Virus record (IMG/VR): IMGVR_UViG_3300017971_004694
Reading direction: 5' to 3' (one strand)
DNA: 64,000 nt
Origin: a virus
Shown here: positions 15,091 to 39,032 of the stretch, in pieces
Layout of the letters: every line of letters starts with the position of its first letter
How positions within the stretch are numbered: the first letter of the stretch is position 1
The notes under the pieces: generated by a model
Seen by the model: the letters and a program-made list of their open reading frames with translations, nothing else
Database searches by the model: none
Told to the model about the DNA's origin: nothing
Program-made: the position numbers and the translations under genes

Positions 15091-15232
15091 TGCGTTCTCC
15101 GCCGTTTGGATTTTCTTTCTCTTTCTCTGTTTTCTCATCGTCAAGGCCAGCTTGTTTTCTAATTTCCTTTTCTGCTTCTTCTTTGTCGTCATAGACATTA
15201 TCGATTTTGGTTGTGGATCTTTTGATAATCAT
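15077..15232 (-). CDS. Small charged protein (51 aa), not in ORF track
   Basis: MIIKRSTTKIDNVYDDKEEAEKEIRKQAGLDDEKTEKEKENPNGGERNVHN*; starts 4 nt after the upstream stop, overlaps the protease start and contains IRKQA. Confidence 0.55.
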   Translation of the reverse strand: MIIKRSTTKIDNVYDDKEEAEKEIRKQAGLDDEKTEKEKENPNGGERNVHN

Positions 15233-15966: not shown

Positions 15967-16227
15967 CTACTGTGTGCTAATGTATTGGGAGGAAAATCCT
16001 TCCCAGGCAAACCCTTGATTCATGTCTTGAACAGTGCTGTCTCTTAAACCTACGATATTTTTAGCAAGTTCCGCGACCTCTTTATTATACTCTGGATCGT
16101 TGGTTTCGTTCTCCATGATGAAGCTGTGCAGAATATCCGTAACAACAGATGCGGCGCGTATGAATTTTTTGCGGCTTAGCTCATCAATTAGGTTAGACAG
16201 ATCGCCTATGACCTCGTTTTTTATCAT
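15967..16227 (-). CDS. Hypothetical protein (86 aa)
   Basis: Start overlaps upstream stop (ATGA); weak helical-hairpin motif. Confidence 0.65.
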   Translation of the reverse strand: MIKNEVIGDLSNLIDELSRKKFIRAASVVTDILHSFIMENETNDPEYNKEVAELAKNIVGLRDSTVQDMNQGFAWEGFSSQYISTQ

Positions 16228-17750
16228 TTTATGCCGCCTCCTGGTGCAAACGGTATAGACATGATTCCAGTTGGAACCGTGCTAGTTATGTAGGTTGTGT
16301 ATCCAACACTGGCGGGCTCCGGGAAAGGAACGTCGTTTCTTGCGGGTGTTGGGAGGGAACATTCTTGCTCTTGCTCTTCTAACTCTGGATTTTCATAAGG
16401 TTCTTTATCACCCAATGATTCTCTAATCTTATCTGTATCAACTGGCTTTTCGCCGCAAGGCTCAGAGAACCAATCGATGAGATCGACAAACATATCTTTA
16501 AATCCATAAGCTTTTGCTTCGGCGTATGCTGCCTTACATGGCCATCCGTTCTCGGTTCTAAATCTGGCTATGACGCCGCCCGTTCTATCTTGGCCAAAAT
16601 AGCAATGAACATAACAGGGTTTTTGAACTAAAAGCTTTGTGACGCAGTTTCCAAGAATATTTCTGCCGTATTCTTCTGGGCGTCCGCTCTCTAGAAATGC
16701 TGGGACATGCTCTAAGCCTACATCGTTGCACATTCGAGCGATGTCTGGATTCGCATGCAACGAGATCACCCTTTCTACTCCAAGTGATTTCATAGCTTCC
16801 AATTGTGCGTGGTCATCAATCATTCCGCCCCTATACACCATCCCAGGAACGACCACTGCAAAATTCCTGGGAAGCGACCTAGGGTTTGGTCTCAAATCTC
16901 CAATTTTATTCAAGGTTTCTACATCGAGCTTTCCTGTGGGTTGCAAGCCACTCTTTGCCTGCCAGCTAGCCAGCCCAACCACAAAATCAGCATCTAGTTG
17001 GGCAGTCTTACAAATATCTGTAATTATTCCAAACAAATCCATAACTGTCTTGCTGTGGGAAACTTTTTGATTAAATTCTACAGCATCCTCTATATCAAAC
17101 GCTGCAAGTCTCGGCTCACCTTTTAACAAAAGTGCGACACCTGTTTTGACCATCTGGTATTGATTCTTGTTAGCCGTGTGAGCTACAAATTCCAGATCCG
17201 GCTCGCCTATTGGGCTGTCGGGCAAATATTTCTGCCTGATGTCTTCAAGCTGCGAAGCAGCTTCTACGAGAGACGCCATAGCTCTTGGACGCATTCTGAG
17301 TCTTTGCATGAATTGTCTCGCCTCTGTCTCCGCCTCTGGCTCTCCTAGGAATGGAGATGTGACAGGGCGCGGTGCGCCCCTTCCAAGATGGCCCATCTCA
17401 TGAACGATGGTTTCCATCAAGCCGTCGAGAACAGCGTTTTCAAGCTCGCCTGAAGTTACAGTCTGCTTTGTTGCTTGGCCAGAATTGCGCATTGTGATCT
17501 CTCTAATCCTATCCTTGAAGATGTGGATCTCGCGCGGGTTTTTATTGGGGCCACTTTCCACATGACCCAATTGCCCAGAGCCACCTCCAGAGTGAACCTT
17601 GATTCTTATGTCTGGAGGCAGAAGACCTGGGCTGATTTGGTCAATCATATTCACTGCCTTATCAACAGCGGGATCCCAAGGCTCAATGACTATCCTGGCT
17701 GCTCGTTTGCTAAATGAAAAGCTCACTTCAATCTCCTTATACGGTTCCAA
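16224..17750 (-). CDS. Multidomain protein: zincin-like HExxH domain, PG-binding-like motif and cysteine-based tyrosine/dual-specificity phosphatase
   Basis: HEMGH (17388-17402); WQAKSGLQPTGKLDVET; NFAVVVPGMVYRGG...VERVISL...HCYFGQDRTG (16578-16607, CX5R loop). Confidence 0.75.
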   Translation of the reverse strand: MEPYKEIEVSFSFSKRAARIVIEPWDPAVDKAVNMIDQISPGLLPPDIRIKVHSGGGSGQLGHVESGPNKNPREIHIFKDRIREITMRNSGQATKQTVTSGELENAVLDGLMETIVHEMGHLGRGAPRPVTSPFLGEPEAETEARQFMQRLRMRPRAMASLVEAASQLEDIRQKYLPDSPIGEPDLEFVAHTANKNQYQMVKTGVALLLKGEPRLAAFDIEDAVEFNQKVSHSKTVMDLFGIITDICKTAQLDADFVVGLASWQAKSGLQPTGKLDVETLNKIGDLRPNPRSLPRNFAVVVPGMVYRGGMIDDHAQLEAMKSLGVERVISLHANPDIARMCNDVGLEHVPAFLESGRPEEYGRNILGNCVTKLLVQKPCYVHCYFGQDRTGGVIARFRTENGWPCKAAYAEAKAYGFKDMFVDLIDWFSEPCGEKPVDTDKIRESLGDKEPYENPELEEQEQECSLPTPARNDVPFPEPASVGYTTYITSTVPTGIMSIPFAPGGGIK

Positions 17751-20782: not shown

Positions 20783-23700
20783 TTATGCCGCCAAAAGTCT
20801 CTGCAATTTTCCCTTTAAGTTCAAATACCTGGGGACATTTTCTCTAAACTCATACACCAAGGCCCATCTTCTTCCTGCTGCGCTTGGGTGTTTGTCTTTT
20901 TTGGCTTCTTCGTATCTGGACTTCAGCCTTTCAATCTCTTCTTCTATAGACTCAATCATGCCAGAAATCTCTTCTTTTTTTAAGAACCTTATCCTTTCAT
21001 CTGGATCTGGAACATTCAAAAGATTTTTCCATCTTTTCACAACATTAGGTTCTCTTTGCTCGGGTCTTATATAGAGCGGATCCCAACGAAGTGGGCGCTC
21101 CCTATCTAAAATCTTCCCGGCAGTTTTCTGATCTATTTTGCCCAAAAACTTAATGTCTTTTTTATACTTGTTCCAGATCTCCTCCGAGAATAATATCTCA
21201 TGGACACCCTCTAATTTATGCAAGCCGCCGGCTTCTTTAATCATTTTCATAGGAACTTTATATGTATAGACATTTCCAAAAATGCCGTGGCGTGGGCCAA
21301 CTGTTCTCCAATTGGAAGTCATAAATAAGCCTACACTAATGGGCTCTTCTGTTTGCCTTGATCTTACCCAAGAGTGCTGACCAAGTTCAGCGTATTCTGG
21401 GTCTATCTTTTCCCAAAGCTCAGGATCAGGCAACCATCGTGTCTTGGGTCTGGGAATAGGTGGTCTTGGCCCTACGTGATACAATATTTTGTATTCTCCT
21501 TCCCTACGCACAGCCTCTTTCACAAACTCCCCTTTAGCAAATAGAAAGTCGTCCGCCATGTCCTCGCTTTCACCTATCTTGCTCCAATCCGCATCTGGCG
21601 GCATTAACCTATGTTTTTTGTATAGGTCTAGTTTGACTTCTTTATATCTTTCCATATCCCCTTCTTGTAATGCCCTGTGCTTTTCAAGTATTTGTCTATG
21701 CCTCTCTTCAACCGGGGCATCTAAGATGCGCTTGAGACCTTTAAGCTGATATTCCACATGCTCTTTGGGTCTTACTTTAAGATCTATAGAAATCCCTTCA
21801 GATGTCTCATATGTGTGCTCAACATAAGCGCCCTCTTTCACATTGGAAAATGGTATGCCCGCCTCTGTTAGCATCTTGCTGGTTCTCTCAACATCGTCGG
21901 TTCCAACTTGAAAGTCTATGTCCGATACGCCGGGGATGTTAATTCCAGCCGCCGTTGAACTAACACAAACAGGATCAATCCCAAGTTCCTTGAGTCTCTC
22001 TTGCTCTCTTTTCATTATCCTGAACATCTTGCGGCGTTCTCTGGCGCTCTTTAGCAAGACTTCATATTCTTCTTTGGTGTATTTTGCCGCTTTCTTGAAT
22101 AGTTCTTTTTTCCTGTCCTCATCTATTCTTGCGGCATCCATCTGCTTGTCTGTGGCCACCACCGCCTTGATGGTCTTTTTCTTCTGCATCACGGCTTTGG
22201 CTAGTCGATGGTAGCCGTCAATAACCTCGCCCTTATATACCAAGATCGGATATTTCAAATCCGCGTCCTTTATTCTTTTAGTATCATCCTTATATTTCTT
22301 AGGATTCTCAAGCACCTCTTCTGGACTATGGGCACCCTTCCCTGGACCAACCTCATCACCCCATACTTTTTCTTTCATGTTCCATTCAAGAGTGCTAATG
22401 GGGACATTCTCCGCTTTGTTGTCCGCAGTGATTTCTATTAACATATCCACGGAATATGCTCTATCACTATCCGTGTAAGTCTGCCCAGCCTTCTTCTCAA
22501 GATCATCTTCCTTGGCTTCCATGATCATCCACTTGTTTCCATCAGTCTTGAAGACCTTGTAGGCGCCCTTTTCCTTTTTGCCCTTCAACTTAAAGACAAT
22601 TTTGCTGCCGCTCCAGGAGATTTCATTATAGGTTCCAGAGTCATAAACTTCCACTTTTCCAGCACCATATTCGCCCTTGGGAATCTCTCCCTTGAACTTC
22701 ATGTATGAAATTGGGTGATCTTCCGTCTTCATGGCCAACAGCTTTTCTTTGCCTTTGGGAAGCTTGTGTTTTGGGATTGCCCATGAAGACATAGCACCCT
22801 GATCGTTTTCAAGTCTCAAATCGAAGTGTTCCCCAGCCCTCTCAGCCTTGTGGCGTTGAATTACAAACCTGTGCTTATTCTTTCCTTCTTCTTTGCCCTC
22901 TGGTTCTGGGGTCTCTTCAAACTCTCTTTTTTTTTTGTAAGTTGAAAGCGGGTCTTTCGCTGCCAATCTCAATTGGGCTTTCTTTCTACCCTTCATTTTG
23001 AAAAGTTCCATATCCAGAATATCCTCTATATTATATGGATATTCCTTCATAGTTCTTTCAATCTGCTTAGAGAACCTGGCCCAGAATTCTGGATTGTCTT
23101 TTTGAAGCACAACAAGCTCATGGAACTTATCCCAGAAATCAGCACCTATCTTATTATTCTCAAGCTCGTTTATCGCCTTGATTGGCATCCAGTCATACTT
23201 CCCAGGCATTACCAAAGCTCTCACAAGCATATATTTGCCCGGAGTAAACTGATTGGTCTTGGTGGTTAATGAGATTCCATTGTAGTCGTGTTCTTTCATG
23301 CCGCTAATGTCATCTTCCTTACCAGCCACCATTTTCTCAGCTTGCCATTTTGGTACAGCCTCAAGGCCGCCAATTTGTCTTGGTTCCAATCCTTCCAGAT
23401 CGGTTTCGTCTAAGTTCCAGATGTCCAATACTCTAAGCAACCTTGGCGTAGTTCCTTTTCTCCTCTGGCGTATTTCTTTACCCTGTAGGTTAAACCTGGC
23501 ACCAAGCGGAATGGCATCCTTGCGAGGAAGCTTCAGTCCATCTTCAACTTTCGTTATGAAATATGTGCCTGGGCCATCAGAGGATATACCATCTCTCTTC
23601 ATGGATACAAGCCACTCATCTAAACCAAACCTTTCATATGGGTTCTCAACGGACAACATTTTATCCACCCAACGCTGAAGTAGAGGTATAGAAACTTCTT

Positions 23701-26700
23701 GTTTTTTGAATTTCTCATTGATCTTCTTCTTCCTCTCTTCAAGTTTGTTCTGCATTTCCGACGAGCCCGTGCCCTTATTTTTCTTGACCTCTGCCTCAAG
23801 CATAGCCCTGGCCATCCAACCAACATAATGTAGTGGATCGTCAAAGGCATAGTCCTTTGTGGCACTCAAAAGAAATAGTTTTCTCAGAAGAGCAGCTCGT
23901 CTCTTTGCGGATGGCGCTTTAACCTCCCCTTCCTCTATTTTCTCTTGTAGGAAACTCAGCTCGTCATAATAGTCATAGTATTGTCGAACGGCACAGCTTT
24001 GGCCTATTGGAGCCACTTCGTTAAAAGCAACCATCAAATCTGCATGAGGATTTTGCTCTCTATGCTCTTGCGGAATCTCTTCCCTTCTCAGCTCTTTTTC
24101 AACCGTTCCCCACATATCTCTTGTGTGAGGTCCCCACAAAAAACCAGCAGCCGGAACCTTTTGTTCCTTTCTGGCTCGGCCAATGGTAAATCTTACACCA
24201 TCATGCGGACAGATAAAGGGAACCTCGTCCAGCCATGCTGGCGGAGTTCTTCCCTCTCCCTCGGGAGATGGCACAGCCTCTTCTTCTCTGGCTTCCTGTT
24301 CTGTTATTTCTTCTTCCATTGGGGGCACAAGTCCGTAATATCTTTTAAGCTTTGCTTTGATTTCCTGGCCTCTGCCTGTTTTCCAAATGTGGTGGTTCCA
24401 ATCAATAGAATTCAAGGGAACCCTACCACCTGGACAAGTTGGATTTGGGCACCAAGTATGAGACCAAGGCACTGCGGCTTGGGCTGAATATATTCCCATC
24501 TTTCTTTCTATATCTTTTTTCTCCTGCGCCAATCCACTTATTTTTTCATTAAGGTTTGTGAGCAATCTGTTCAGATCTCGTATCTTGCGCTCACCACTTT
24601 CTTTATCTTTAGGATCTGTATATGTGTCCTTGGCCTTGGAAAAGAATCTCAAAAGCTTGTTGGCTTTCTCTTGTTCTCTTTGCATAGTAGTTAATTTGCT
24701 ATCCAAGCGAGGCAGTTCTACGTTCCTCAGGCCTTCTACTCTTCCGGCGCAGTCTGGACACGCCCAGGTGCGTTTTTTTGTCTTTTGCATCTTGGGTGGA
24801 AGGGAGTTTTTCTCAAGGGTTTTACATATAGAGCACACTGGATTTTTTGATACTGTGTAGCCCTTATCCTTGGCCACTTCCTTGACCATCTGTCTGTCCA
24901 GGATTTTATAAATCCATTTATCCATGTTTATTGGTTCTACATTAGCCCTGTCCTCAGAGAAATATTCATTGGCCAAATCTGTGGTTTTCTCTATAATCTT
25001 CTGGATATAAGGTTTGGCCTCAGGCTGCTCTTCGAAATCAAGTTCTTGATTTCTTAGTTTTCTGGCCCTCTTCGTATCTATATCATCAAACATGCCAAAT
25101 GGCGCGTCAGGGAAAGTTCCAAATTGCTTGTTCAACCTGCCAGAATTTCTTATAAACCACATGCGACCTATAGATCTAACTATGTAAGGCAGAATCCAGC
25201 TCTGTAGGAGATGAGGCTCCTTCTTCAATATTTCCCAAGCTTTTGGATCATTAAGCAATTTTCTAAACTTAGGCCCTTCTTCCATTTTGTCTGGTGTAAA
25301 AAAGTCAAGCGCCTCCGAGGACATAGGGGGCGGATCTGGTTCTTTCCAAGTAGCCGTGCCCTTTTCGTCCACAGGAACCTCAAGTTTGGGGGCAAAGTAT
25401 GGCTTTGCCTCCGCAAGATGCCTTGCCTCTTCTTCTAGAGCTTCCATGCTATATTCTTCTACTACGTCCTCTTCTTCTTCCTTTTTGGCTTCTTTCTCCT
25501 CCTCGGACATCAGTTTTGAAATTTCTTCCCAGCGCTCTTCGAACTTTTCAGGATTGGCAAGCTCAACAAGCTCGCCGGCCATCTTTCCAGGGACAGCGGC
25601 GTATAGCTCAAAGCCGTTCATCATTCTATTATATCCCTTCTCCGCTTCTATGTCGGCTGCTTCTATATCATCCATATCAATGAAGGATTTGTTTAAATAC
25701 TCCGTTAAAGCTTCTGGATCAAGCGTCATTATTCTCTTCACTTCCTCATTGGCCTTACGAGCAAGGTATTCGTCTATTAGTTTTTTGATGGTGTGCTTTT
25801 GTTTTTCTGTAATCTCTCTGACTGCAGGAGGAACAACCTCTTTCTCCCTTTCAGCTTTTCTTTCTCGTCCAAGCAAATATGCAACCTCTTCTGGAGTCAA
25901 ATCTTCTAGTTCTGTAAATTCTTCCTCTTCTTCCAGCTCCTCTTCTTCCTCTTCAGGAATGGCAACTTCTTCCAGCTCTTCTTCCTCAAAAGCAACCTCT
26001 TCTGGCTCTGGCTCTGGCTCTGGCTCTGGCTCAGGTTCTGGCTTGGGAGCTTCTTCTACAACCGGAGGCTTTTCCTTAATCTCTTCTGGAACGGGAGCTG
26101 GAATTGGCTCCTCGCTTACATCCTCCCATTCGTCATCCTCCTCTTCCTCGGAGATTTCCTCAAGAAACTCCTCTTCCTCTTTCGGAAGCTCTTCAGGGAG
26201 CGCCTCTTCCTCTTCAAGTTTGGCCAACTCCTCTTCCTTTTCTTTTAGAAACTCCTGGTATGGTTGCTTCATGCCCTCAAGCAAACCCTGTTCTTCTTTT
26301 TCTTTTCTCCACTTCAGAAACTCATCAAGTTCTTCTTTACCTGGCGCCTCTCTTTTTGGCTTGGGCTCTACCCCTTCTTCCTCAAGTTCTTCGTATGTTC
26401 CACCATAGGGCTTCATCTTTTCGCCAAACATCTCAACGGCTTTTTCGCTTGGAAGTGGTCTTGGCTCAGTTGGCTCCACGAAGCCCTCTTCTTCCCTTTC
26501 GCGTCTTTGTTCCCCTTTAAGCCTCTCGATTTCAGCTTCGTCAAGCCCAGCTGCGAATTTTTCTATTCTATCTAAAACCTCACTAGCTTTTAGCCATGCT
26601 TCATATTTTTGTTTGGCTGGCCCCAAAGTCTCTGCGCCATTAAGGAAATTGGCGAACACCCAGGCAAAATTCTCTGAGTCGTCTGGGCCAATAGCCGTGA

Positions 26701-29700
26701 ACAACAAACCATCTTTTTCAATAGGGAGCCCCGTCCAAATACCCTTGGAACGGCGGACACTGCCCATAATCTCTGGCCAACCAGTAACTTCTCTTCCTTT
26801 CATAACGCCTGCCTCGGCAGCAAGAAGTGGGGCGTGGCAAATCATAGCGACGGGTTTCTTCTGACGCACGAATTTCCTAAGGAGTTTCTGTGCTTTCTTA
26901 TCCTTGGAATATTTAACCATGCCCATGCCGCCAACTACAAAGAGGGCATCATAATCTCCAACATCAACACTAGCAACCTTTTTGCTTATATCTACGGCTG
27001 TGCCCCTATCTCCAGTGGCTTTCAGCCCAGATGAAGCAGTATCAACATCAAACTTAAACTTCTCTACAAATAGATTGAGCGGAGTGGTATATTCAATCTC
27101 ACAAAAATCTTCTGGAGAAAGTATCATTAAAATCTTTTTGGCTTTGGCCTCTTTTATTATTTCTCTTCTAGATAAAGCCATTTTATCATCCGCATCAAAA
27201 TAAGTGCCGATTTCGCCAAAATCCACTCCCTTGGTTGGGAAGAAAGGAATTGCTCCCGTGTCTAAGCCACCGGGCTCTTTATCAAGATTTTCTGGGAGCA
27301 TGGTGTATTTCTTTCCATATGATTGTGGGAACTGATCCGAATCATCCTGCTTTCCGCCCATTGGCCCTTTCACTTTGCCTTGGGTCTCTCCAATGGAACC
27401 GGGAACACGGATGCTGCCTTTATTATGGAGCGTAGAAATATCACTCCTCATGCCGTCGCCTTTTACGACGCCAGTCTTCACATCTGGCCAATCCTCATTA
27501 AGCTCGTTCAGAAGCGTTTTAAGCTCTGCTCTGAGCTTATCGATTCCAACCTCTTTGTCGAGCTTGAACTCTACGTGTAGCCCCGTTCCGCCACTCTGGA
27601 AGATGGTTGGCGTGGAACCATACTTGGCCTTCAGCTTTTTGGCGAGCGCCCTGGCATACTTCTTGGCTTGGTCTAATGAATATTTGCCGTGAATATCCAA
27701 ATCAACAAAGCCCAGGTTTGTCTTTGTTCCGAATACCTGGTGGAACGAAAGAATGCGCCTTTTGACCCAGTAGAAATAGTTGTTTGGGTTCTCGGAGTTT
27801 CCAGGGTCATCGTTGGTTATTTTGATTTCTTTTCCATCATGATTTCTCTTGAGTATTTTCTGGTTCTTGCCTATGCCAATATACACCAATACCGGCTTGT
27901 CTTTGATGCGAGACATGATTTTCTTACGGATTTCCGGCTTTTCATAATGGCTTTTAATCTGACCACGAGTAAGCTTGGTTCCTTCTTTGTCAATTAGCAC
28001 CTCAGACATTTTCTCCTGATCTTCATCGCCATCGTCATCCGCCATCTGAACGCCTTCATAAACATCAAATCTAATAACCATATAACGCTTATTAGTACCG
28101 AATCTTCTTTCAAGCGCCTTGGCTATACGCTTGCCAAAAGCCTTTTCTATGCGCTTGCTGCTCATCCTCTCTTTGGCAGTAATAAGCAGATCACAAACAT
28201 GCGCTCCGCCATAAGTGCGACACTTCACCACTTCTTCGACACTCACGGGAACGTCACTTGTGCGAATAGTCATCCTGCGCTTCCCGTTTTTAATCGCATC
28301 TACATATTGAGAAGGGAAATAAAGAGCACCTGGCTCGGCATAAATGGCAGCGTGTTTAGACAAAGTTAGGCTCGCCTCTCTTCTTTCTTCACCGCTCCAC
28401 TTTCCAGGGGCAAACTTATCCTTTAAAGTTTCCCAATTTTCCAATACAAAATTAGCTATTTCTCTGCTAAGATAATAACCAAACTCCTCATCTGTGATTT
28501 CTTTACCATATATTTGACTATACTCTTTGCGAGCCTGCTCTTTGAGAGCCGGGTTCATCTCAAACTCTTTTTCGGTCTTATGATATAGTTCACCAATCAC
28601 TTCTCGCTGAATAGGATTAATGACAATTTCCATCGTGTCTTCTTCCACAAACTCGTCTTCATCCTGCGCTCTTTTACTAAGTATCGAAAGCTCGCCTACC
28701 AGTCGTCTGGATGGAAATCCACCCATACCACGACCACCTGGAACACCCCTTAGCAACTCGCTTGCTATAGGAGCCAGGTCGGGTTGGGTTTGCATCAGCT
28801 TGGTAAGAACTTTCTTGAACCTGGAAGAATATAGATAATGTAGGTGTCCTGGTCCAAAAGGTTTTCTGCCATACAGGAATCTCTGCACACGACCAGGGCC
28901 GCTTCCATTGGATATGATGATTAACTGGTAGATATTGTAGGCGTTGGGCGCAGTAGTATCATAGCCAGACTTTTGCACATATCTGGTTGTAGCTCTAATC
29001 TTGTTCATAAAATCTTGTCTTGAAGTGTTTTCTATTAGATTGCCTACAGCCTTATCTTTTCTTATGTTTTTGGAGTTAAACTTACGCTTAAACTTGGCGA
29101 AGGAACTTGGGTTATTCTTCATCACGATGAGCCCTGCAAGCTTACTGCGTGCTACATTTCCCGTAATGTAAGTTGTGAATATTTTTTGCACCTCTCTTCT
29201 AACGGCAGGTGAGTCCGCGCCCAATTGCCTAAGAATCTCTGGCTTAAGTGTCTTGCCGACATACCTTCCATCCTTTTCCAACACAACCATGTTTGGGCTG
29301 TATCTTATGAAAGTTCCTTCTCTGCGCCTTACTCTGGATCTTGGGTTCTTTTCTAAGAAGGCTTTGATAATTCTTGGATTAATGTCTTGATAATCCCAAA
29401 TATTTTGCTTGCGAACCGCCTTCAAAGCCCTCTTCCAATCACTAGACATTTTCTTAAATTCGCTAGGAGAAATGCCAGTTGCGCTTTGAGCATTGGGCAT
29501 TCTAGAAAGCATCCCCATAAAATACGGACCATGAACCTGAGTTGGGCCAAAGGAAGTTCCAGAGTCTCCAATAACATGCGTTCTTCCACCCGATTCCAAC
29601 TGAGCCATGATTCTAAACATTTTTTCGCCATCGACACCGCCTATCGTCCCAAGCCTGCCCGGAGCATGCGTGATGCCCAGCATCTTTTCAAGCCTTCGTA

Positions 29701-30190
29701 TAATAGTATCTACATAAGAGGCAGTCTTAACAAGCATAGCTCTTTTGGATAGATGCTCTTTAAGCAATTCAATATCTCCCTGATCCTTTGGCCTGTTCAT
29801 TTTCTCCTTCCACTCTAATACATGTTCGGGCGCCCAATGTTTGAATCCAAGATGTTCTCTGGTAGTGACACCCTCGCTCATAAAATCTTTGTCTCCCACC
29901 ATCCAAGGCCCAGTAAATATTTCTATTTCTCCCACATCAGTTTGGAAAGACGCCCTGGGATTTCCTGGTCTTATTTCATCAACGACCGCATCGGGATGCT
30001 GCTCAATTTTCTTAAACTCATCTGGGTCCGCATGGACATCTAAATCATTAATGCTTTTTACACCCAAGGCCCCAAGAACGCCGCTTCCACCAATAGTGAT
30101 TTTGTTGATGTCTACTCCAACCTCATCGAGTATTTCCTTGAGGTTTCTAATGAACGCCTCGTGCTTTTCTTTTTCTGGATCTCTGGGCAA
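20783..30190 (-). CDS. 3135-aa polyvalent/polyprotein: NTase, lysozyme-like, ASCH, LigD primase-polymerase, DJ-1/PfpI, acidic plus Zn-finger region, LigD 3'-phosphoesterase, ParB-like, second NTase, ART-like
   Basis: GGSGVLG...NDLDV; QLESGG...SFGPTQ; LYFPSQYVDAIKNGKRRMTIR; FVDLDI...QSGGTGLHV...IRVPGS; YDALFVVGG...AMICHAP; TYKKKREFEETPEP...FVIQRH...HFDLRLE...SWAIPK...TEDHP; ADLKYPILV...IDGYHRL; SSTAAGINIPGVSDIDF; LYHVG...LFMTSN...VYTYKV...EIL. Confidence 0.85.
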   Translation of the reverse strand: MPRDPEKEKHEAFIRNLKEILDEVGVDINKITIGGSGVLGALGVKSINDLDVHADPDEFKKIEQHPDAVVDEIRPGNPRASFQTDVGEIEIFTGPWMVGDKDFMSEGVTTREHLGFKHWAPEHVLEWKEKMNRPKDQGDIELLKEHLSKRAMLVKTASYVDTIIRRLEKMLGITHAPGRLGTIGGVDGEKMFRIMAQLESGGRTHVIGDSGTSFGPTQVHGPYFMGMLSRMPNAQSATGISPSEFKKMSSDWKRALKAVRKQNIWDYQDINPRIIKAFLEKNPRSRVRRREGTFIRYSPNMVVLEKDGRYVGKTLKPEILRQLGADSPAVRREVQKIFTTYITGNVARSKLAGLIVMKNNPSSFAKFKRKFNSKNIRKDKAVGNLIENTSRQDFMNKIRATTRYVQKSGYDTTAPNAYNIYQLIIISNGSGPGRVQRFLYGRKPFGPGHLHYLYSSRFKKVLTKLMQTQPDLAPIASELLRGVPGGRGMGGFPSRRLVGELSILSKRAQDEDEFVEEDTMEIVINPIQREVIGELYHKTEKEFEMNPALKEQARKEYSQIYGKEITDEEFGYYLSREIANFVLENWETLKDKFAPGKWSGEERREASLTLSKHAAIYAEPGALYFPSQYVDAIKNGKRRMTIRTSDVPVSVEEVVKCRTYGGAHVCDLLITAKERMSSKRIEKAFGKRIAKALERRFGTNKRYMVIRFDVYEGVQMADDDGDEDQEKMSEVLIDKEGTKLTRGQIKSHYEKPEIRKKIMSRIKDKPVLVYIGIGKNQKILKRNHDGKEIKITNDDPGNSENPNNYFYWVKRRILSFHQVFGTKTNLGFVDLDIHGKYSLDQAKKYARALAKKLKAKYGSTPTIFQSGGTGLHVEFKLDKEVGIDKLRAELKTLLNELNEDWPDVKTGVVKGDGMRSDISTLHNKGSIRVPGSIGETQGKVKGPMGGKQDDSDQFPQSYGKKYTMLPENLDKEPGGLDTGAIPFFPTKGVDFGEIGTYFDADDKMALSRREIIKEAKAKKILMILSPEDFCEIEYTTPLNLFVEKFKFDVDTASSGLKATGDRGTAVDISKKVASVDVGDYDALFVVGGMGMVKYSKDKKAQKLLRKFVRQKKPVAMICHAPLLAAEAGVMKGREVTGWPEIMGSVRRSKGIWTGLPIEKDGLLFTAIGPDDSENFAWVFANFLNGAETLGPAKQKYEAWLKASEVLDRIEKFAAGLDEAEIERLKGEQRREREEEGFVEPTEPRPLPSEKAVEMFGEKMKPYGGTYEELEEEGVEPKPKREAPGKEELDEFLKWRKEKEEQGLLEGMKQPYQEFLKEKEEELAKLEEEEALPEELPKEEEEFLEEISEEEEDDEWEDVSEEPIPAPVPEEIKEKPPVVEEAPKPEPEPEPEPEPEPEEVAFEEEELEEVAIPEEEEEELEEEEEFTELEDLTPEEVAYLLGRERKAEREKEVVPPAVREITEKQKHTIKKLIDEYLARKANEEVKRIMTLDPEALTEYLNKSFIDMDDIEAADIEAEKGYNRMMNGFELYAAVPGKMAGELVELANPEKFEERWEEISKLMSEEEKEAKKEEEEDVVEEYSMEALEEEARHLAEAKPYFAPKLEVPVDEKGTATWKEPDPPPMSSEALDFFTPDKMEEGPKFRKLLNDPKAWEILKKEPHLLQSWILPYIVRSIGRMWFIRNSGRLNKQFGTFPDAPFGMFDDIDTKRARKLRNQELDFEEQPEAKPYIQKIIEKTTDLANEYFSEDRANVEPINMDKWIYKILDRQMVKEVAKDKGYTVSKNPVCSICKTLEKNSLPPKMQKTKKRTWACPDCAGRVEGLRNVELPRLDSKLTTMQREQEKANKLLRFFSKAKDTYTDPKDKESGERKIRDLNRLLTNLNEKISGLAQEKKDIERKMGIYSAQAAVPWSHTWCPNPTCPGGRVPLNSIDWNHHIWKTGRGQEIKAKLKRYYGLVPPMEEEITEQEAREEEAVPSPEGEGRTPPAWLDEVPFICPHDGVRFTIGRARKEQKVPAAGFLWGPHTRDMWGTVEKELRREEIPQEHREQNPHADLMVAFNEVAPIGQSCAVRQYYDYYDELSFLQEKIEEGEVKAPSAKRRAALLRKLFLLSATKDYAFDDPLHYVGWMARAMLEAEVKKNKGTGSSEMQNKLEERKKKINEKFKKQEVSIPLLQRWVDKMLSVENPYERFGLDEWLVSMKRDGISSDGPGTYFITKVEDGLKLPRKDAIPLGARFNLQGKEIRQRRKGTTPRLLRVLDIWNLDETDLEGLEPRQIGGLEAVPKWQAEKMVAGKEDDISGMKEHDYNGISLTTKTNQFTPGKYMLVRALVMPGKYDWMPIKAINELENNKIGADFWDKFHELVVLQKDNPEFWARFSKQIERTMKEYPYNIEDILDMELFKMKGRKKAQLRLAAKDPLSTYKKKREFEETPEPEGKEEGKNKHRFVIQRHKAERAGEHFDLRLENDQGAMSSWAIPKHKLPKGKEKLLAMKTEDHPISYMKFKGEIPKGEYGAGKVEVYDSGTYNEISWSGSKIVFKLKGKKEKGAYKVFKTDGNKWMIMEAKEDDLEKKAGQTYTDSDRAYSVDMLIEITADNKAENVPISTLEWNMKEKVWGDEVGPGKGAHSPEEVLENPKKYKDDTKRIKDADLKYPILVYKGEVIDGYHRLAKAVMQKKKTIKAVVATDKQMDAARIDEDRKKELFKKAAKYTKEEYEVLLKSARERRKMFRIMKREQERLKELGIDPVCVSSTAAGINIPGVSDIDFQVGTDDVERTSKMLTEAGIPFSNVKEGAYVEHTYETSEGISIDLKVRPKEHVEYQLKGLKRILDAPVEERHRQILEKHRALQEGDMERYKEVKLDLYKKHRLMPPDADWSKIGESEDMADDFLFAKGEFVKEAVRREGEYKILYHVGPRPPIPRPKTRWLPDPELWEKIDPEYAELGQHSWVRSRQTEEPISVGLFMTSNWRTVGPRHGIFGNVYTYKVPMKMIKEAGGLHKLEGVHEILFSEEIWNKYKKDIKFLGKIDQKTAGKILDRERPLRWDPLYIRPEQREPNVVKRWKNLLNVPDPDERIRFLKKEEISGMIESIEEEIERLKSRYEEAKKDKHPSAAGRRWALVYEFRENVPRYLNLKGKLQRLLAA

Positions 30191-30228
30191 ATCATCGGCG
30201 TCACTCTTTTTAGCTTCCTTGAACTTAT

Positions 30229-31206
30229 CTATGTTTTAGAATGAAACTCATGCATGGTTGCGTCCTTAGGGCTTTTGTCTTCCCTGAATCTCACAAACTT
30301 TTGGTGCCTAAGACCGCCAGGCTGTCGCTCTTGGAAACCTATCTCAATTACAAAAGGCCCTTTCTTGAGCTTACTTTTAATCTTCCCCTCGTCTTCTTTG
30401 GAGAAGTTGCTAATCTCGCTCATATGATAGAGCTTCCCTTTATAATATTGCCCATAGAGAGCCTTTAGCTTATCTTTTTCGCTCATCTCGTAATCAAATA
30501 CGACATAATCATCACTTTCGCTTTTACCAGCACCACCTTTATATTTATACATAATCTTAGGTGGCTTGGGCTCAGTTTCACCCTTGCTCTTATATTCATA
30601 TGGTTTATCTTTCAGCTTTAGCACAATACCTTCTCCGCCAGTGTTGACGGCTGTGTTCATGGCTTTCTGCCAATCTCCAAAGCTATAATTCTTAGTAAGT
30701 TTTACCTTATCACTCTCTTTCACAAGACTTTGTAGTGCCTTGCGGCGCTCTCCAAAGCCCTTGTCTGCTACTTTGTTGCCCTTGCTCCAAAGCACATCGT
30801 AGAGATGTATCTTCACGGAACCCGGAAGTTCCTTGGCCTTTTCAGCAGATTTTTCTGGCGAACTACCAGCTAAAGAAGTGACCTTGCCTACGTCTTGTTT
30901 ATTTTTATCCCAATATACCAACTCACCTTCAACGTGCGTTCCTTCAGGAAGAAAGCTAAGCGCCTCAACAAGCTCGGGGAAGTTTTCGGTTTTCTCATCA
31001 CCTCTGCGGCTATAAAGACGAACCTTTCCACCAGTTCTGATGATCTGAACTTTCCAGCCATCCAACTTCTCTTCTACCACAATATTTTCACGATTGAAAT
31101 CCTTTAGGAGTTCATCCACATCTTTAATCTCAGTGAGACGCATTAAGGACACTGGCCCAAGGCCATCTGGAGACGCTCGTAGAGATAAGGCAAGCTTGGT
31201 AGTCAT
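30229..31206 (-). CDS. ATP-dependent DNA ligase (LigD/LigC-type ligase domain, standalone)
   Basis: Motif I EEKLDG, III VEGELV, IIIa LYDVL, IV EGIVLK, V YKYK; OB domain ending LRHQKFVRFREDKSP. Confidence 0.92.
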   Translation of the reverse strand: MTTKLALSLRASPDGLGPVSLMRLTEIKDVDELLKDFNRENIVVEEKLDGWKVQIIRTGGKVRLYSRRGDEKTENFPELVEALSFLPEGTHVEGELVYWDKNKQDVGKVTSLAGSSPEKSAEKAKELPGSVKIHLYDVLWSKGNKVADKGFGERRKALQSLVKESDKVKLTKNYSFGDWQKAMNTAVNTGGEGIVLKLKDKPYEYKSKGETEPKPPKIMYKYKGGAGKSESDDYVVFDYEMSEKDKLKALYGQYYKGKLYHMSEISNFSKEDEGKIKSKLKKGPFVIEIGFQERQPGGLRHQKFVRFREDKSPKDATMHEFHSKT

Positions 31207-32565: not shown

Positions 32566-34536
32566 TTATATTCCTCCGAGGCCACCGCCTCCACCGCCGC
32601 CTGGGCCACCAGGACCAAGTGGCGGGGCTCCGCCTGGAACTTCTGGTGCGCCACCGCCAGGAGGCCCACCACCCATCTCTCCACCAGGAGGCGGCGCAAG
32701 TTCGCCAAGACCACCAGGCATTGCCATCTCTCCGCCAGGAGGCGGCATGCCAGGCATTCCAGCTGCCTCTGGCGGAGCACCAGCTGCTGCGCGTTCCTTA
32801 TCATCGATGGGTTCCATAACTTCCTTCTCTGGATCTAGAGTTCTAAGCTCAGCAATTGTCATCTTCCTGAGACTTTCATTTTCTCTGTTTCTAATTTCAT
32901 CATTGATCATCTCTTGCCTGATACTGACTCTTTCATCCTCATAGCTAAGACCAAGGCTCTTGTATAGAGTCTGTAGCGACACCTGCTTGTTGGCCACAAG
33001 ACCAGAGATGTTGGCAATGTAATCCTGAAGGTCATATAGATTCATTTGGTTCCACTCAACCTCGGGAACAATAAGTCTCTTTGTGCCACCCTCGTAGTCA
33101 TAGAAGTCATTAATCTCGCTAATAGGCGCGAAGATTTTACTCTGTAGCCACTGAGCCATCATATGCCTGCAGTTAAAGTAGCGCTGTCTCAATACTTCCA
33201 AACCAATGGAAGCAGAGGCATACACTGCACTCTCAGTATCTACGACCGCTGGGGGCACCATCAAACCTGTGTAGATGTTTTTGATGATTAGCTCCATGTC
33301 GGGGCCAATATCTAATACCTGACCAGAAGCGCCGACTCTTTCCACGGTGACACCGGCATGTGTGATCAACTTGAAATCTTTATCATATTGGGCTTCCTCA
33401 AACATTTGGCGGAAAAATTCCAAGTCTTCCTGAGTTGCTCTGTATTCACCATCAGTGTTTCCGCCAACCTTAACGATGGTTATTGGATTAACAAGGCCGT
33501 CTGCCTGGGCAAACTTGGCCTCTCTTAGTTTATCATAAAGCATTAGGTCTTTGAAGGTGCTTACAATAACACTCGTCCCTCTAACATCATACGGGCTCGA
33601 AAGCATCTTCAAATGCGAAACATTAAAGTTGTCCAAAGGAATATCTTCACCCTTTCTTACGTGATAGATAATCTTCTCTGGTATTTGCTTTCTAAGCTGA
33701 ACATCCGCAGGGTTGCTACTCATCACAAGCCTTTGGAGAACAGCGTCAGGCTTTAGTGAAACAATTGGCTCGCCTGATAGAACCGTCTTCTTGACGTGTA
33801 TATAGTCTGGGTTCTGGATTACAATATTGCTCCACTTACCCGTTTCCTCGTTAAGTTCTGCATATGGGAACACTTCTCCCATCTTCCAGTATTCCAACGA
33901 CAAATCTCCAAGCGCCTGCATAAGTGACATCTCTTCAGCCATATCTTCAAAGAATTGAAGAACCTTTTTGTTGTGGCACTTGAAGTTAATCTTGCTTATT
34001 GGATATGTCGCGTGCAACGTAATTGCGTTTCTAACTATTGGGTGCAACTGGAAAAAGTTTCTAATCCAGGCATTTACCGTAATCCTGTCTCGCGGCAGGT
34101 TAAGGTTGGCCATTATAAACAATGGCGAATAAACTTCTGGAGCAAGTCGCTCAACAGAAGAGCCCGCTGTAGTTCCAGCGCCAGTACTTGAAGAGCTAAA
34201 GGCTGCCCCTTGTGCTTGTTTAACAAAAGCTTCGCTGTGGGCAATAGCACCTACAGCAGTGGCGGTGTTGCTAAACGATTTCTTATCTTCGCTCCTTCCT
34301 GGAAGCCAAGCCCCACGTTGTAGATTTTCTGGGTCGGTGGTTCGTGGTGCATCACCACTTTTGTAAAGATTGCTTGCACCATAATTTCTTCCCTCTTGCA
34401 TATCTCCACCTTCAATTTCTCTTTCAATTGCCTCCTTTCTAAATTGAGACAGACCATCAGCAGACTTTGGGGAGATCCTCAAAGTTTGCTTTTGGTCGGT
34501 GGGTCCTCTGGACCCTCTTCTCTTACCATCGATCAT
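32566..34536 (-). CDS. Portal protein
   Basis: Directly downstream of terminase; conserved-looking core (FFQLHPIVRNAI...LEYWKMGEVFPY...FNVSHLK...YDVRGTS...KLREA...LITH); N-terminal extension and Pro/Gly-rich tail. Confidence 0.85.
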   Translation of the reverse strand: MIDGKRRGSRGPTDQKQTLRISPKSADGLSQFRKEAIEREIEGGDMQEGRNYGASNLYKSGDAPRTTDPENLQRGAWLPGRSEDKKSFSNTATAVGAIAHSEAFVKQAQGAAFSSSSTGAGTTAGSSVERLAPEVYSPLFIMANLNLPRDRITVNAWIRNFFQLHPIVRNAITLHATYPISKINFKCHNKKVLQFFEDMAEEMSLMQALGDLSLEYWKMGEVFPYAELNEETGKWSNIVIQNPDYIHVKKTVLSGEPIVSLKPDAVLQRLVMSSNPADVQLRKQIPEKIIYHVRKGEDIPLDNFNVSHLKMLSSPYDVRGTSVIVSTFKDLMLYDKLREAKFAQADGLVNPITIVKVGGNTDGEYRATQEDLEFFRQMFEEAQYDKDFKLITHAGVTVERVGASGQVLDIGPDMELIIKNIYTGLMVPPAVVDTESAVYASASIGLEVLRQRYFNCRHMMAQWLQSKIFAPISEINDFYDYEGGTKRLIVPEVEWNQMNLYDLQDYIANISGLVANKQVSLQTLYKSLGLSYEDERVSIRQEMINDEIRNRENESLRKMTIAELRTLDPEKEVMEPIDDKERAAAGAPPEAAGMPGMPPPGGEMAMPGGLGELAPPPGGEMGGGPPGGGAPEVPGGAPPLGPGGPGGGGGGGLGGI

Positions 34537-34549
34537 TAGTATTCACCTC

Positions 34550-36400
34550 TTACAGTCTTTTTGGAAAATAAGCCAAAATTGGCTTGGGAAGCATAGAGCG
34601 CTCGGCTGCGTGGGCAGTTAGTTTAAAACCTTTGGTCTTATCATACTTATACGCCAGATAGGCATATATGAGCGCCATGAGCCCGTCGTTCTGGCTCTTT
34701 CCCTTTACATATGTTTTATGCGGCTCACCCCTACGGGTGACCCATTTGCTCTCCATGGAAGTGCAGTGCTTCACGAGCCAAGCAATTCTTTCATAACTGG
34801 CCCAAGGAAATCTAAACCTGCCCTTTCTGAGGAGAGCGAAAATCTCTTCAATAATCTTGTCTTTATCTACCACTACTTCCATCTCATCTTTGTTATACTT
34901 AACGCCGCCAGCAACCATGCTTGAACTCCTAACGGTCTTATATTTTTCTCCATAAGTAACTTTCAATTCTCCCGAGAGATCCTCGGCAAAGCCGATGTCG
35001 CCCATGGCTGAGCGAGCACCATAAAGTCTAAACATATTGTCCACAAACTCTTTCTTGGATTCAAAATTAGATTGCTTGAGCTTGGCTGCATACTCAATTA
35101 CGAATCTTTCGTCGTGATCGACAGACAGGACCAAGCCACAAGAGAAAGAGTGGCCTCGCTTAACACCATCAATATCAGGCTTACCACCCCAGTCAAACCC
35201 CAAATATACGTGCTTGTCGCCGTGTGGGATGGACTTAGCCATGTGTCTGTCGGGATCCCTGCACATAGTATAAATCTCTTCGAAGGTAATGGGCATCCCT
35301 TCACCAGAGTGAAACTCTCCTAAAACCTCATTATTCCAAGCGATCTCAGAGTTAATTGGGTTATTTTCTGGCTTCTCCTTAACGATTACTTCTTTCGTGA
35401 ATTCTGGAATAAATAGCTGATTGAAATGAAAACCAATTACATCAGCGTTTTCTCTGCCCGGTGTTGCAATCCACTTGCCTCTTTCTACTGCATCAATTTT
35501 ACTCTGCTCTTCTCCACAAGAGGGACACTTAACCATATTCTCATACAACCATATTTCAGTTTCCCACTTGTCGGATCCTGGTGTGTAAAGAAGGAAGTAG
35601 GCATTGCAGTTTCCACACTTAAGATAGTATCTGCGCTGATCCGAGTTCTCCCACATACGCCAGAAGAAAGTTCCTTTTTGTCGCGGAGTTCCAAAAAATA
35701 CTTGAACGCCGCCAGGTTGCGGGCCAAACTGGGCACGAGTGAGACACTTAATAGTCTTACCAATCGCCACCTCGGTCATATCCTGAACCTCGTCAAAGAA
35801 TATAACGTCAAGGGTTCTACCAAGAACTCTGGTTCCCTCATTACCAATGGAATCACACCAGAGCGTATTGGCGTGCTTGAATTGCTTATAAAGCAACGTG
35901 TCGGTTGAATCTTTTGTGCCCGCTTTTTGAGCCTCTACGAAAGGTCTCAGTTTTCCAGGTTGTCTCTTGAAATCAAAATCAGGAGTGGCCACAGAGTTAT
36001 TAATCATCTTTTCAAGTTTGTCTTTTGAGAAAGAGTGCATGATTTCCAACTGTGGAAAAGCGTGTAACACTCTCACCGGAGGAATATTATTCACTCCAAA
36101 CATCCCACTGGAAACTAAGTAAAGTTCCACTGCTGAAGCCATGGTTGTAGCGCCCACCTGACGGCCCTTAACTATTACGATGGGTTTTCCGCTGTTTGAC
36201 ATCGCCACGGTCACAATGTGGCGATAAATATCGGCAATGAATTTCCATCCATTGTTCGTAATTCGCATAGGAGCGCCGTCCAATGTAAGATAGGTCTCCG
36301 CAAAGGAGACCGGATCCAACTTCATTAGCTCTCTTTTTAATGAATCAAAACTGTTTTCTGGGCGCCAAATATCATTGGCGTTCAACATCTTGGTAACCAT
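34550..36400 (-). CDS. terL: Terminase large subunit (GpA-like with Zn finger)
   Basis: Walker A VKGRQVGATT, Walker B IFFDEVQ, coupling motif FGTP, CGNC...CPSC and nuclease LGFDWG; likely start MVTKM at 36400. Confidence 0.9.
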   Translation of the reverse strand: MVTKMLNANDIWRPENSFDSLKRELMKLDPVSFAETYLTLDGAPMRITNNGWKFIADIYRHIVTVAMSNSGKPIVIVKGRQVGATTMASAVELYLVSSGMFGVNNIPPVRVLHAFPQLEIMHSFSKDKLEKMINNSVATPDFDFKRQPGKLRPFVEAQKAGTKDSTDTLLYKQFKHANTLWCDSIGNEGTRVLGRTLDVIFFDEVQDMTEVAIGKTIKCLTRAQFGPQPGGVQVFFGTPRQKGTFFWRMWENSDQRRYYLKCGNCNAYFLLYTPGSDKWETEIWLYENMVKCPSCGEEQSKIDAVERGKWIATPGRENADVIGFHFNQLFIPEFTKEVIVKEKPENNPINSEIAWNNEVLGEFHSGEGMPITFEEIYTMCRDPDRHMAKSIPHGDKHVYLGFDWGGKPDIDGVKRGHSFSCGLVLSVDHDERFVIEYAAKLKQSNFESKKEFVDNMFRLYGARSAMGDIGFAEDLSGELKVTYGEKYKTVRSSSMVAGGVKYNKDEMEVVVDKDKIIEEIFALLRKGRFRFPWASYERIAWLVKHCTSMESKWVTRRGEPHKTYVKGKSQNDGLMALIYAYLAYKYDKTKGFKLTAHAAERSMLPKPILAYFPKRL

Positions 36401-36401
36401 T

Positions 36402-39017: not shown

Positions 39018-39032
39018 TTTCAGCACTCTCCA

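Follow-up and report, generated by a model that had tools for sequence, protein, structure and literature searches.

A putative polyprotein with LigD-like DNA repair modules in the head module of a huge phage

The DNA analyzed here is a stretch of 64,000 nucleotides from IMG/VR virus record IMGVR_UViG_3300017971_004694 (in the following, the window). Its minus strand carries all long open reading frames (ORFs), including every window feature located below. On this strand, an ATP-dependent DNA ligase module (30229-31206) is directly followed by a multi-domain polyprotein ORF of 3135 amino acids (aa; 20783-30190, with the frame open from 30235). Bacterial LigD combines a ligase (LIG), a polymerase (POL), and a 3'-phosphoesterase (PE) and has Ku as its partner for non-homologous end joining (NHEJ). 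As the initial annotation had claimed, all three LigD-type activities are encoded inside the head module, namely a PF01068 ligase, an AEP primase-polymerase recognized by family profile and structural model, and a PE domain that passes TIGR02777, each with intact catalytic residues. The best overall explanation, to which we give an even chance of being right, is that the three modules are made as parts of a processed polyprotein and constitute a packaged, LigD-like repair set.

The ligase, polymerase, and phosphoesterase modules

The ligase module, 325 aa long as sequenced, consists of a nucleotidyltransferase (NTase) and an OB domain and was recognized by PF01068 (3e-32) and phrog_114. All ligase motifs were located: KLDG with K47 (motif I), EGELV (III), LYDVL (IIIa), EGIVLK (IV), and YKYK (V) in the NTase domain and RFREDK (VI) in the OB domain, which places the protein in the family of ATP-dependent DNA ligases (PF01068 plus OB fold). 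The closest matches in the PDB were the catalytic cores of archaeal and human Lig1 (1e-19 to 1e-10), and the LIG domain of Mycobacterium tuberculosis (Mtb) LigD reached merely 1.4e-4. The generic dnl1 model, with 96.5 bits, outscored the LigD-specific model TIGR02779, and every NCBIfam cut-off was still far above. Judged by its sequence, the ligase belongs with the generic ATP ligases of two domains and is closer to archaeal Lig1 cores than to LigD LIG.

The AEP domain (residues 723-945; 27356-28024) appears to be of the LigD POL/Prim-PolC type. As a single sequence it retrieved nothing from the PDB, and a family profile was needed. A HMMER scan of 1.84 billion representatives yielded 224 relatives, and the profile was built from 24 of these. 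Its matches to the LigD POL structures 2iru, 5dmu, 5op0, and 2fao ranged from 2e-9 to 3e-7, and PF21686 was matched by 23 of the 24 family members. The AlphaFold (AF2) model of the domain, with a pLDDT of 94.3, was compared with the PDB by Foldseek. Its top 13 matches (TM 0.68-0.78) comprised the POL domains of Mtb and Pseudomonas LigD, Prim-PolC of M. smegmatis, and the NHEJ polymerase of Methanocella; other primase-polymerases trailed at TM values of at most 0.5. A close viral structural relative was not found in BFVD (best TM 0.50). The key residues are H817, D830, D832, S866, H872, and D917, three of which (D830, D832, and D917) are metal ligands, and an SGxGxH motif is present as well. 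A role as replicative primase is unlikely, as both Pol III alpha and a primase of the DnaG type are encoded in the window.

The PE domain (residues 2412-2563; 22502-22957) matched PF13298 at 4.8e-27 and scored 145.1 bits with TIGR02777, just above the cut-off of 144. In comparison with the PE domain of Pseudomonas LigD (2lj6), the residues R14, E21, Q40, H42, H48, D50, R52, K66, E82, H84, and Y88 are retained, and D15 is replaced by E. We regard the domain identities of the modules as highly probable.

Co-inheritance of the modules was counted by searching the best 150 AEP representatives with the window's own domains. PE was present in 50 of them, a ligase in 21, and all three modules in one chain in 11. 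The order LIG-AEP-PE is common to seven giant proteins, and there are two compact LIG-AEP-PE proteins of 952 and 838 aa, which look like minimal LigDs. The one-polypeptide trio was seen in P0003, P0004, P0008, P0009, P0010, P0014, P0017, P0019, and P0069; in the window itself, it holds solely if a gap at 30234-30237, described below, is read through. Many two-domain AEP-PE proteins of 365-650 aa were recovered as well. These repeated fusions identify the trio as a recurrent functional unit in phages and exclude a chance neighborhood. One AEP-PE protein of 365 aa (L021, 8001-9098) is encoded on another large-phage contig between split multisubunit RNA polymerase genes (Rpb2_6 and Rpb1). Thus, LigD-type modules occur outside head modules too.

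The reported absence of Ku from the window was borne out. Ku was not among the 20 Pfam families detected in the large minus-strand ORFs, and phmmer with Corndog Ku found nothing in the six frames. A wider search was run on the whole records of four relatives (340, 442, 302, and 161 kb, with the 442-kb record rated 100% complete). None of the four contained Ku (PF02735), for which Corndog Ku served as positive control of the model (1.8e-30), and Mu Gam was found in 0/4 of the same records.

Compared with LigD of P. aeruginosa (Pae) and M. tuberculosis, the phage set has the same three activities, joined on one polypeptide in relatives. Its PE passes the TIGR02777 test and keeps the metal and phosphate ligands, a superposition of its AEP model with LigD POL of Mtb and Pae gives TM values of 0.68-0.78, and its ligase is of the minimal NTase plus OB type. 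Unlike in LigD, the phage modules are located thousands of residues apart in a protein of ~3470 aa with at least eight unrelated units, the ligase stands closer to archaeal Lig1 cores and gets 81 bits where the LigD LIG model asks for 228, no Ku was found in the window or in four relatives, and the genes reside in a phage head module. We conclude that the trio can be expected to work like LigD, yet is not simply a dismembered LigD; it fails LigD tests on ligase type and Ku.

The junction motif and the predicted fate of the polyprotein

Giant homologues of the polyprotein, 2200-3800 aa in length, occur in metagenomes. In an alignment of 12 of these relatives, a short motif is conserved in otherwise variable linkers (FLLSKRA, FNLSKRA, FDISKRA, IMLSKRA, etc.). 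It is found after the ligase, after a lysozyme-like unit, before an ASCH unit, and on both sides of PE. In the polyprotein of the window, motif scan and alignment located LSKRA at residues 147-151 (29738-29752) and 504-508 (28667-28681) and LSKHA at residues 610-614 (28349-28363), the latter aligned with xSKRA/S in 12/12 relatives. Across 27 giant relatives with 60,647 residues, [LIVMF]SKR[ASG] occurs in 67 copies versus 1.0 expected, with a maximum of 4 in 200 shuffles. As many as 63 of the 67 copies lie outside the detected domains, which span 48% of the residues. The proteins of the window contain five copies of the strict motif, compared to 0.24 expected, and two of the five are in the polyprotein. 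The motif also appears as FSFSKRA at residue 13, in a leader-like position, of a PTP-phosphatase-like head-module protein (16224-17750), as QLSKRA at residue 519 of a cupin-containing protein of 874 aa (36402-39026), and as CLSKRS at residue 517 of a 722-aa protein (48298-50466), the latter two being multi-domain proteins as well. The products of these genes may be further processed cargo.

The relatives' ligases and other head-module proteins carry N-terminal leaders of the form M-x-F-x-L-S-K-R-A. Examples from the ligases are MFPLSKRTA, MMTFPLSRRAA, MTFNLSKRAS, and MKLSIRAS. The window ligase starts with MTTKLALSLRAS, which contains ALSLRAS, and its leader motif L-S-L-R-A (ligase residues 7-11; 31174-31188) has counterparts in the relatives' N-termini. 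The similarity of LSLRAS to a processing motif, pointed out in the initial annotation, is therefore shared by relatives. Three head-module proteins encoded at L012 (12093-14114), L013 (14509-17565), and L014 (14112-15824) start with M-F-Y-[IL]-S-K-R-A and have an additional internal copy. A leader common to unrelated proteins is like a capsid-targeting or cleavage tag.

Internal proteins of T4 and ejection proteins of phiKZ and SPN3US are capsid cargo trimmed by the prohead protease. The motif enrichment and the leaders together form the pattern of such cargo. Further context is available (PMC10052503). We consider it fairly probable that the polyprotein is cleaved at the SKRA junctions. The DJ-1/PfpI domain of the polyprotein was ruled out as the processing protease, because relatives without DJ-1/PfpI retain the motif. 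In the Pfam search of the polyprotein, no peptidase besides DJ-1/PfpI and no zincin-like MPTase was detected. In the protease-scaffold protein, at residues ~510-700 (13099-13665), there are two near-identical peptides of ~59 residues (YHQGGGG...NPENLGGG...), which begin directly after K-x-A, end at L-x-R-A, and look like repeated small internal head peptides.

We propose the following mechanism. The ligase ORF and the 3135-aa ORF would represent one late head-module gene of ~3470 codons, interrupted in the record by a single-base indel. Its product would be a polyvalent polyprotein comprising a leader, the ligase, NTase-like, lysozyme-like, and ASCH units, the LigD-type AEP polymerase, and DJ-1/PfpI, followed by an ~800-aa Zn-ribbon module, the 3'-phosphoesterase of LigD type, and more units of small size. 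The chain would be cut in trans at [FIL]-x-[LI]-S-K-R-[ASG] junctions into separate enzymes, most likely by the prohead protease, and these enzymes would then be loaded into the capsid and exit with the DNA. PE would clean ends with a 3'-phosphate or 3'-ribonucleotide, POL would fill short gaps or extend ends, and LIG would seal the nick. The trio would be a LigD-like pathway that is complete in itself, needs no Ku, and serves the very large genome of the phage. It would deal with nicks, gaps, and blocked ends that stem from the virion stage or are inflicted on entry, and it might possibly join ends.

By analogy with polyvalent and ejection proteins, packaging and ejection of the enzymes seem to us about evenly balanced between true and false. 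Rather more tentatively, the same analogy suggests that the substrate is the incoming genome with its nicks, gaps, and blocked ends rather than ends joined in the Ku manner. With similar reserve, we suggest that this huge-phage lineage packages a Ku-independent, LigD-like pathway together with a DJ-1-type deglycase and a Zn-ribbon module, which may stand in for Ku, and injects them with the genome; the incoming chromosome of 190-440 kb would then be repaired, or sealed after attack by host nucleases, ahead of all phage gene expression. That the chain also has a lysozyme-like unit is in keeping with an ejected protein. A self-carried repair set is plausible, as damage per genome can be expected to scale with length. 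Furthermore, the trio is distinct from the replication enzymes, because Pol III alpha, a DnaG-type primase, and RecA are encoded elsewhere in the window and relatives have a second ligase. The latter, also ATP-dependent, was found in G001 (30439-30873) and G002 (106567-106992), the two most complete relatives and the records behind L007 and L008. It occupies open frames of 475 and 502 aa at a distance of 140-300 kb from the head module. An NAD ligase was not found in G001 and G002, and the second ligase is probably their replication ligase.

Polyvalent proteins of phages and conjugative elements (Iyer et al., 2017; PMC5512222) were defined as giant proteins with many domains, whose genes lie among those of the virion and for which injection is assumed; the general concept of injecting multi-domain proteins along with the DNA is established. 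The same study mentions no LigD, PE, DNA ligase, or DJ-1 domain and confines PrimPol to conjugative elements. The phage chain resembles these proteins in uniting disparate enzymatic domains, of which ligase, AEP, DJ-1/PfpI, and PE are firm and the lysozyme-like and ASCH units weaker, and likewise in its location among virion genes, in domain shuffling between relatives, and in its predicted delivery with the DNA. It differs in that no zincin-like MPTase was found in the chain, which has the repeated short SKRA motif instead. The mycobacterial excision-repair pair Prim-PolC/LigC also combines Ku-independent AEP gap filling with an ATP ligase, and Prim-PolC was among the best fold matches (TM 0.71-0.73); these are, however, separate cellular proteins with neither a PE domain nor a virion context. 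The mycobacteriophages Corndog and Omega likewise apply NHEJ-type chemistry to their own genomes but in the inverse manner, as they bring Ku and borrow the host LigD for circularization, whereas the phage described here has LigD-like enzymes and no Ku. The internal proteins and Alt of T4 and the ejection proteins of phiKZ and SPN3US are similar with respect to head-module genes, short N-terminal leaders, repeated short motifs, and enzymes delivered with the DNA, a delivery that is predicted for the present phage. Their cleavage sites are of the L/I-x-E or S/A/G-x-E type rather than SKR-A, and their cargo is not strung on one polyprotein. We know of no system of the T4 or phiKZ/SPN3US type that carries a set of ligase, polymerase, and phosphoesterase.

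Several points weigh against a packaged repair set. For every member of the family, cleavage, packaging, and ejection are predictions. The major capsid protein (MCP) and the protease-scaffold protein are devoid of strict SKRA and contain looser h-x-K-x-A sites (IVKYA, IIKYA, FKKSA, GEKRA, LSRA; the last ones flank the two ~59-residue peptides), which makes the tie to the prohead protease indirect. The ligase reached only 81.2 of the 227.75 bits required by TIGR02779 (NHEJ_ligase_lig). The initial view of three LigD modules therefore stands for the PE domain and for the activities as such, and not for a LigD-type ligase. The AEP domain of the window is below the cut-offs as well, with 25.1 versus 27.4 bits for PF21686 and 18.7 versus 214.7 bits for TIGR02778, and R76 of PE (2lj6 numbering) is replaced by L. 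The lysozyme-like call depends on middling VIA-align Z scores. The search for Ku in the window's own genome covers 64 kb; the ligase is listed on a contig of 186.5 kb. In the absence of Ku, LigD-type enzymes join double-strand ends poorly, so that circularization by end joining is doubtful. Finally, AEP, PE, and the ~800-aa module have no homologue in 50,697 GenBank phage records, in which tblastn with a whole relative polyprotein retrieved just distant ligases and one DJ-1; all relatives are uncultivated.

Alternatively, the enzymes could be made late, remain unpackaged, and act in the infected cell on concatemeric DNA, where they would mend nicks, gaps, and blocked 3' ends either ahead of packaging or while it is under way. 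Their position in the head module would then reflect timing and a quality control of packaging. This is consistent with the location of the genes between portal and protease, near the terminase, and with the nick sensitivity of packaging motors, for which T4 with its need for ligase is an example; moreover, the separate ligase elsewhere in relatives suggests a division of labor. It leaves unexplained, however, the fusion to a lysozyme-like unit and a dozen unrelated domains, as well as the junction motif and the leaders common to other head-module proteins, the pattern of which is that of capsid cargo. We therefore consider such a role unlikely.

If the processed polyprotein is indeed delivered with the DNA, the phage would be the first virus with a repair pathway for DNA breaks and nicks in its particle. 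This would explain how very large phage genomes, which offer damage a big target, come through the extracellular phase and the initial minutes of an infection. The strategy would mirror that of Corndog and Omega, and the enzymes would be a new class of cargo for polyvalent and ejection proteins. It would also provide compact, natural, Ku-free LIG-POL-PE enzymes of 838-952 aa and, with xSKRA, a sharply defined motif as candidate protease site. Even without delivery, the repeated AEP-PE-ligase fusions in phages show that chemistry of the LigD type exists among viruses in its own right. In full-text literature searches, we found no description of LigD modules in phage virions or jumbo phages.

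The ligase-polyprotein junction

That the ligase lies immediately upstream of the polyprotein, as first annotated, is correct; its status as a separate gene is not supported, as it most probably forms the polyprotein's N-terminal domain, cut off by a one-base gap. In the DNA alignment, the A4 run at 30234-30237 is one base short versus seven relatives, which breaks the ligase-polyprotein frame. The window reads CAT TCT AAA-AC ATA GAT, and the relatives read CAT GTx GAA/AAA AAC ATA GAT (e.g., CAT GTT AAA AAC ATA GAT). In 7/7 aligned relatives, one long ORF begins with the ligase domain (66-75% identical) and continues in frame. In L002, for example, the fusion is 2718 aa long; in L007 and L008, it measures ~1270-1300 aa, and the chain is divided further on, past the AEP domain. 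Past the ligase stop, the -1 frame of the window encodes NIDKFKEAKK, which is homologous to NIDEFKMAEKK of L002. A comparable gap affects the protease-scaffold gene, which is a single ORF of 1385 aa in L012 and L014 versus 823 plus 630 aa in the window. The two window ORFs (12727-15198 and 10979-12871) are separated by a single-base gap near 12974 (12965-12985) when compared with L012 and L014, and the final ~80 residues of the 823-aa ORF are out-of-frame junk. Two one-base gaps in otherwise intact essential genes make assembly errors likely and suggest that the record carries indel errors. We are confident that the region 20783-31206 is one gene of ~3470 codons, broken by an indel.

If the split were real, a separate ligase of 325 aa would be made, and the polyprotein would be translated from the TTG at 30190 or via reinitiation or programmed frameshifting. 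Stand-alone ligases of 342-346 aa do exist in some relatives, and other relatives divide the polyprotein after the AEP domain, hence splitting is tolerated. The natural stand-alone ligases, however, have their C-terminus 6-10 residues past the junction motif and a conserved tail there, which is not where the window sequence breaks, and the conserved NIDKFK is found in the -1 frame at the very point where seven relatives have it in frame. A slippery heptamer (X XXY YYZ) was not found at the ligase stop, nor was a start codon at workable distance behind the sole good Shine-Dalgarno box (AAGGAAG). Since the same record has another single-base gap in an essential gene, we regard a genuine split as quite improbable. 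A programmed -1 frameshift at the ligase stop was ruled out by the missing heptamer, the A run of four bases, the in-frame relatives, and the second, unrelated gap.

Further units and genomic setting

The N-terminal unit of the polyprotein (residues 1-150; 29741-30190) is a putative pol-beta-type nucleotidyltransferase, based on a match to phrog_12854 (4e-5) and a homologue at the N-terminus of P0007; Pfam gave no match for these residues. Residues 165-500 (28691-29698), with an invariant E-S pair, were modeled by AF2 with a pLDDT of 88. The top structures in VIA-align were chitosanases and lytic transglycosylases (including phiKZ gp144 and Slt70) with Z scores of 5.8-8.1, and neither Foldseek nor the PDB sequence profile returned a match. 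On the grounds of the model, we regard this unit as lysozyme-superfamily-like, with moderate support. The ASCH-like unit (residues 620-712; 28055-28333) is weak in the window (PF04266, 0.16) and clearer in P0003 (7.8e-4), and it is kept in all giant relatives. The DJ-1/PfpI domain (residues 1018-1177; 26660-27139) contains a Cys-His nucleophile elbow, ICHAP, and its assignment by sequence is firm (PF01965, 7.7e-30; TIGR01382, 1e-25; PDB matches).

The conserved module of ~800 aa (22991-25405) has a fold without known relative. An alignment of 10 loci revealed a coiled coil and invariant, Zn-ribbon-like CxxC Cys clusters. Pfam, PDB profile, and ESM Atlas searches with this module gave coiled-coil noise at most. 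It is a candidate DNA-end-binding partner. L017 has the ~800-aa module in a gene of its own, 1700 aa long and upstream of a compact LIG-AEP-PE gene; an assignment of this 1700-aa gene as portal was ruled out, because it is a relative of the ~800-aa module. The unit with a DGYHR motif next to PE (residues 2566-2685; 22136-22495), possibly ParB/Srx-like, matched phrog_17560 (9e-16, function unassigned) and had no match in Pfam. Units are swapped among relatives: a 2H phosphoesterase follows PE in some, the DGYHR unit relocates, and DJ-1 is present or absent. Such shuffling is typical of polyvalent proteins.

In L007 (13931-19249) and L008 (17901-19997), the 2H (LigT-like) phosphoesterase is encoded right after PE, and both distribute the polyprotein over two or three genes, with the split following the AEP domain. 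That PE, the relatives' 2H domain, and the ligase instead mend tRNAs or other RNAs after cleavage by anticodon nucleases of the host, or remove 2'-5' or cyclic nucleotide signals as an anti-defense measure, would fit these 2H domains, which are known parts of polyvalent proteins (PMC5512222), and the weak match of the ligase to PF09414 RNA_ligase (9e-7), but it is very improbable given that the ligase includes motif VI in an OB domain and matches DNA ligases best, that the AEP domain is of the DNA gap-filling LigD/Prim-PolC type, and that Pfam detected no 2H domain in the window.

The assignment of the window to a huge phage is based on the portal, whose nearest cultured match is gp14 of Bacillus phage G (35.5% identity), and on its IMG/VR relatives, which reside on contigs of 134-442 kb. 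Downstream on the minus strand, the order is large terminase of the GpA type (34550-36436; PF05876, 1.3e-17; phrog_675, 8e-57), portal (32566-34536; phrog_16240, 4.5e-55), an ORF of 446 aa, ligase, polyprotein, five smaller genes, the prohead protease-scaffold gene (10979-15198; phrog_18299; split near 12974), of which 12727-15198 is the protease ORF (phrog_18299), and, further on, the MCP gene (892-1929; phrog_2522, 2.7e-76). No relatives of the 446-aa gene after the portal were found, and no similarity to gp15 of phage G or to a 395-aa gene of L017 was detected. The synteny TerL - portal - X - LIG-polyprotein - protease - MCP is kept in the window and its relatives. In all of these, the LIG-polyprotein is thus encoded among virion and late genes, between portal and prohead protease. 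The placement described at first reading, between portal and protease and apart from the replication genes, agrees with the phrog matches and with the position of the genes for Pol III alpha, DnaG primase, and RecA elsewhere. These belong to the region 39033-63997, for which Pfam searches of the other large ORFs identified Pol III alpha with a PHP domain, RecA, a DnaG/Toprim primase, RuvC, a sigma-70 region 4 protein, and a CCA/poly(A) polymerase head domain. The same region encodes two chaperone-type proteins unusual in a phage, a full DnaJ and a trigger factor C-terminal domain.

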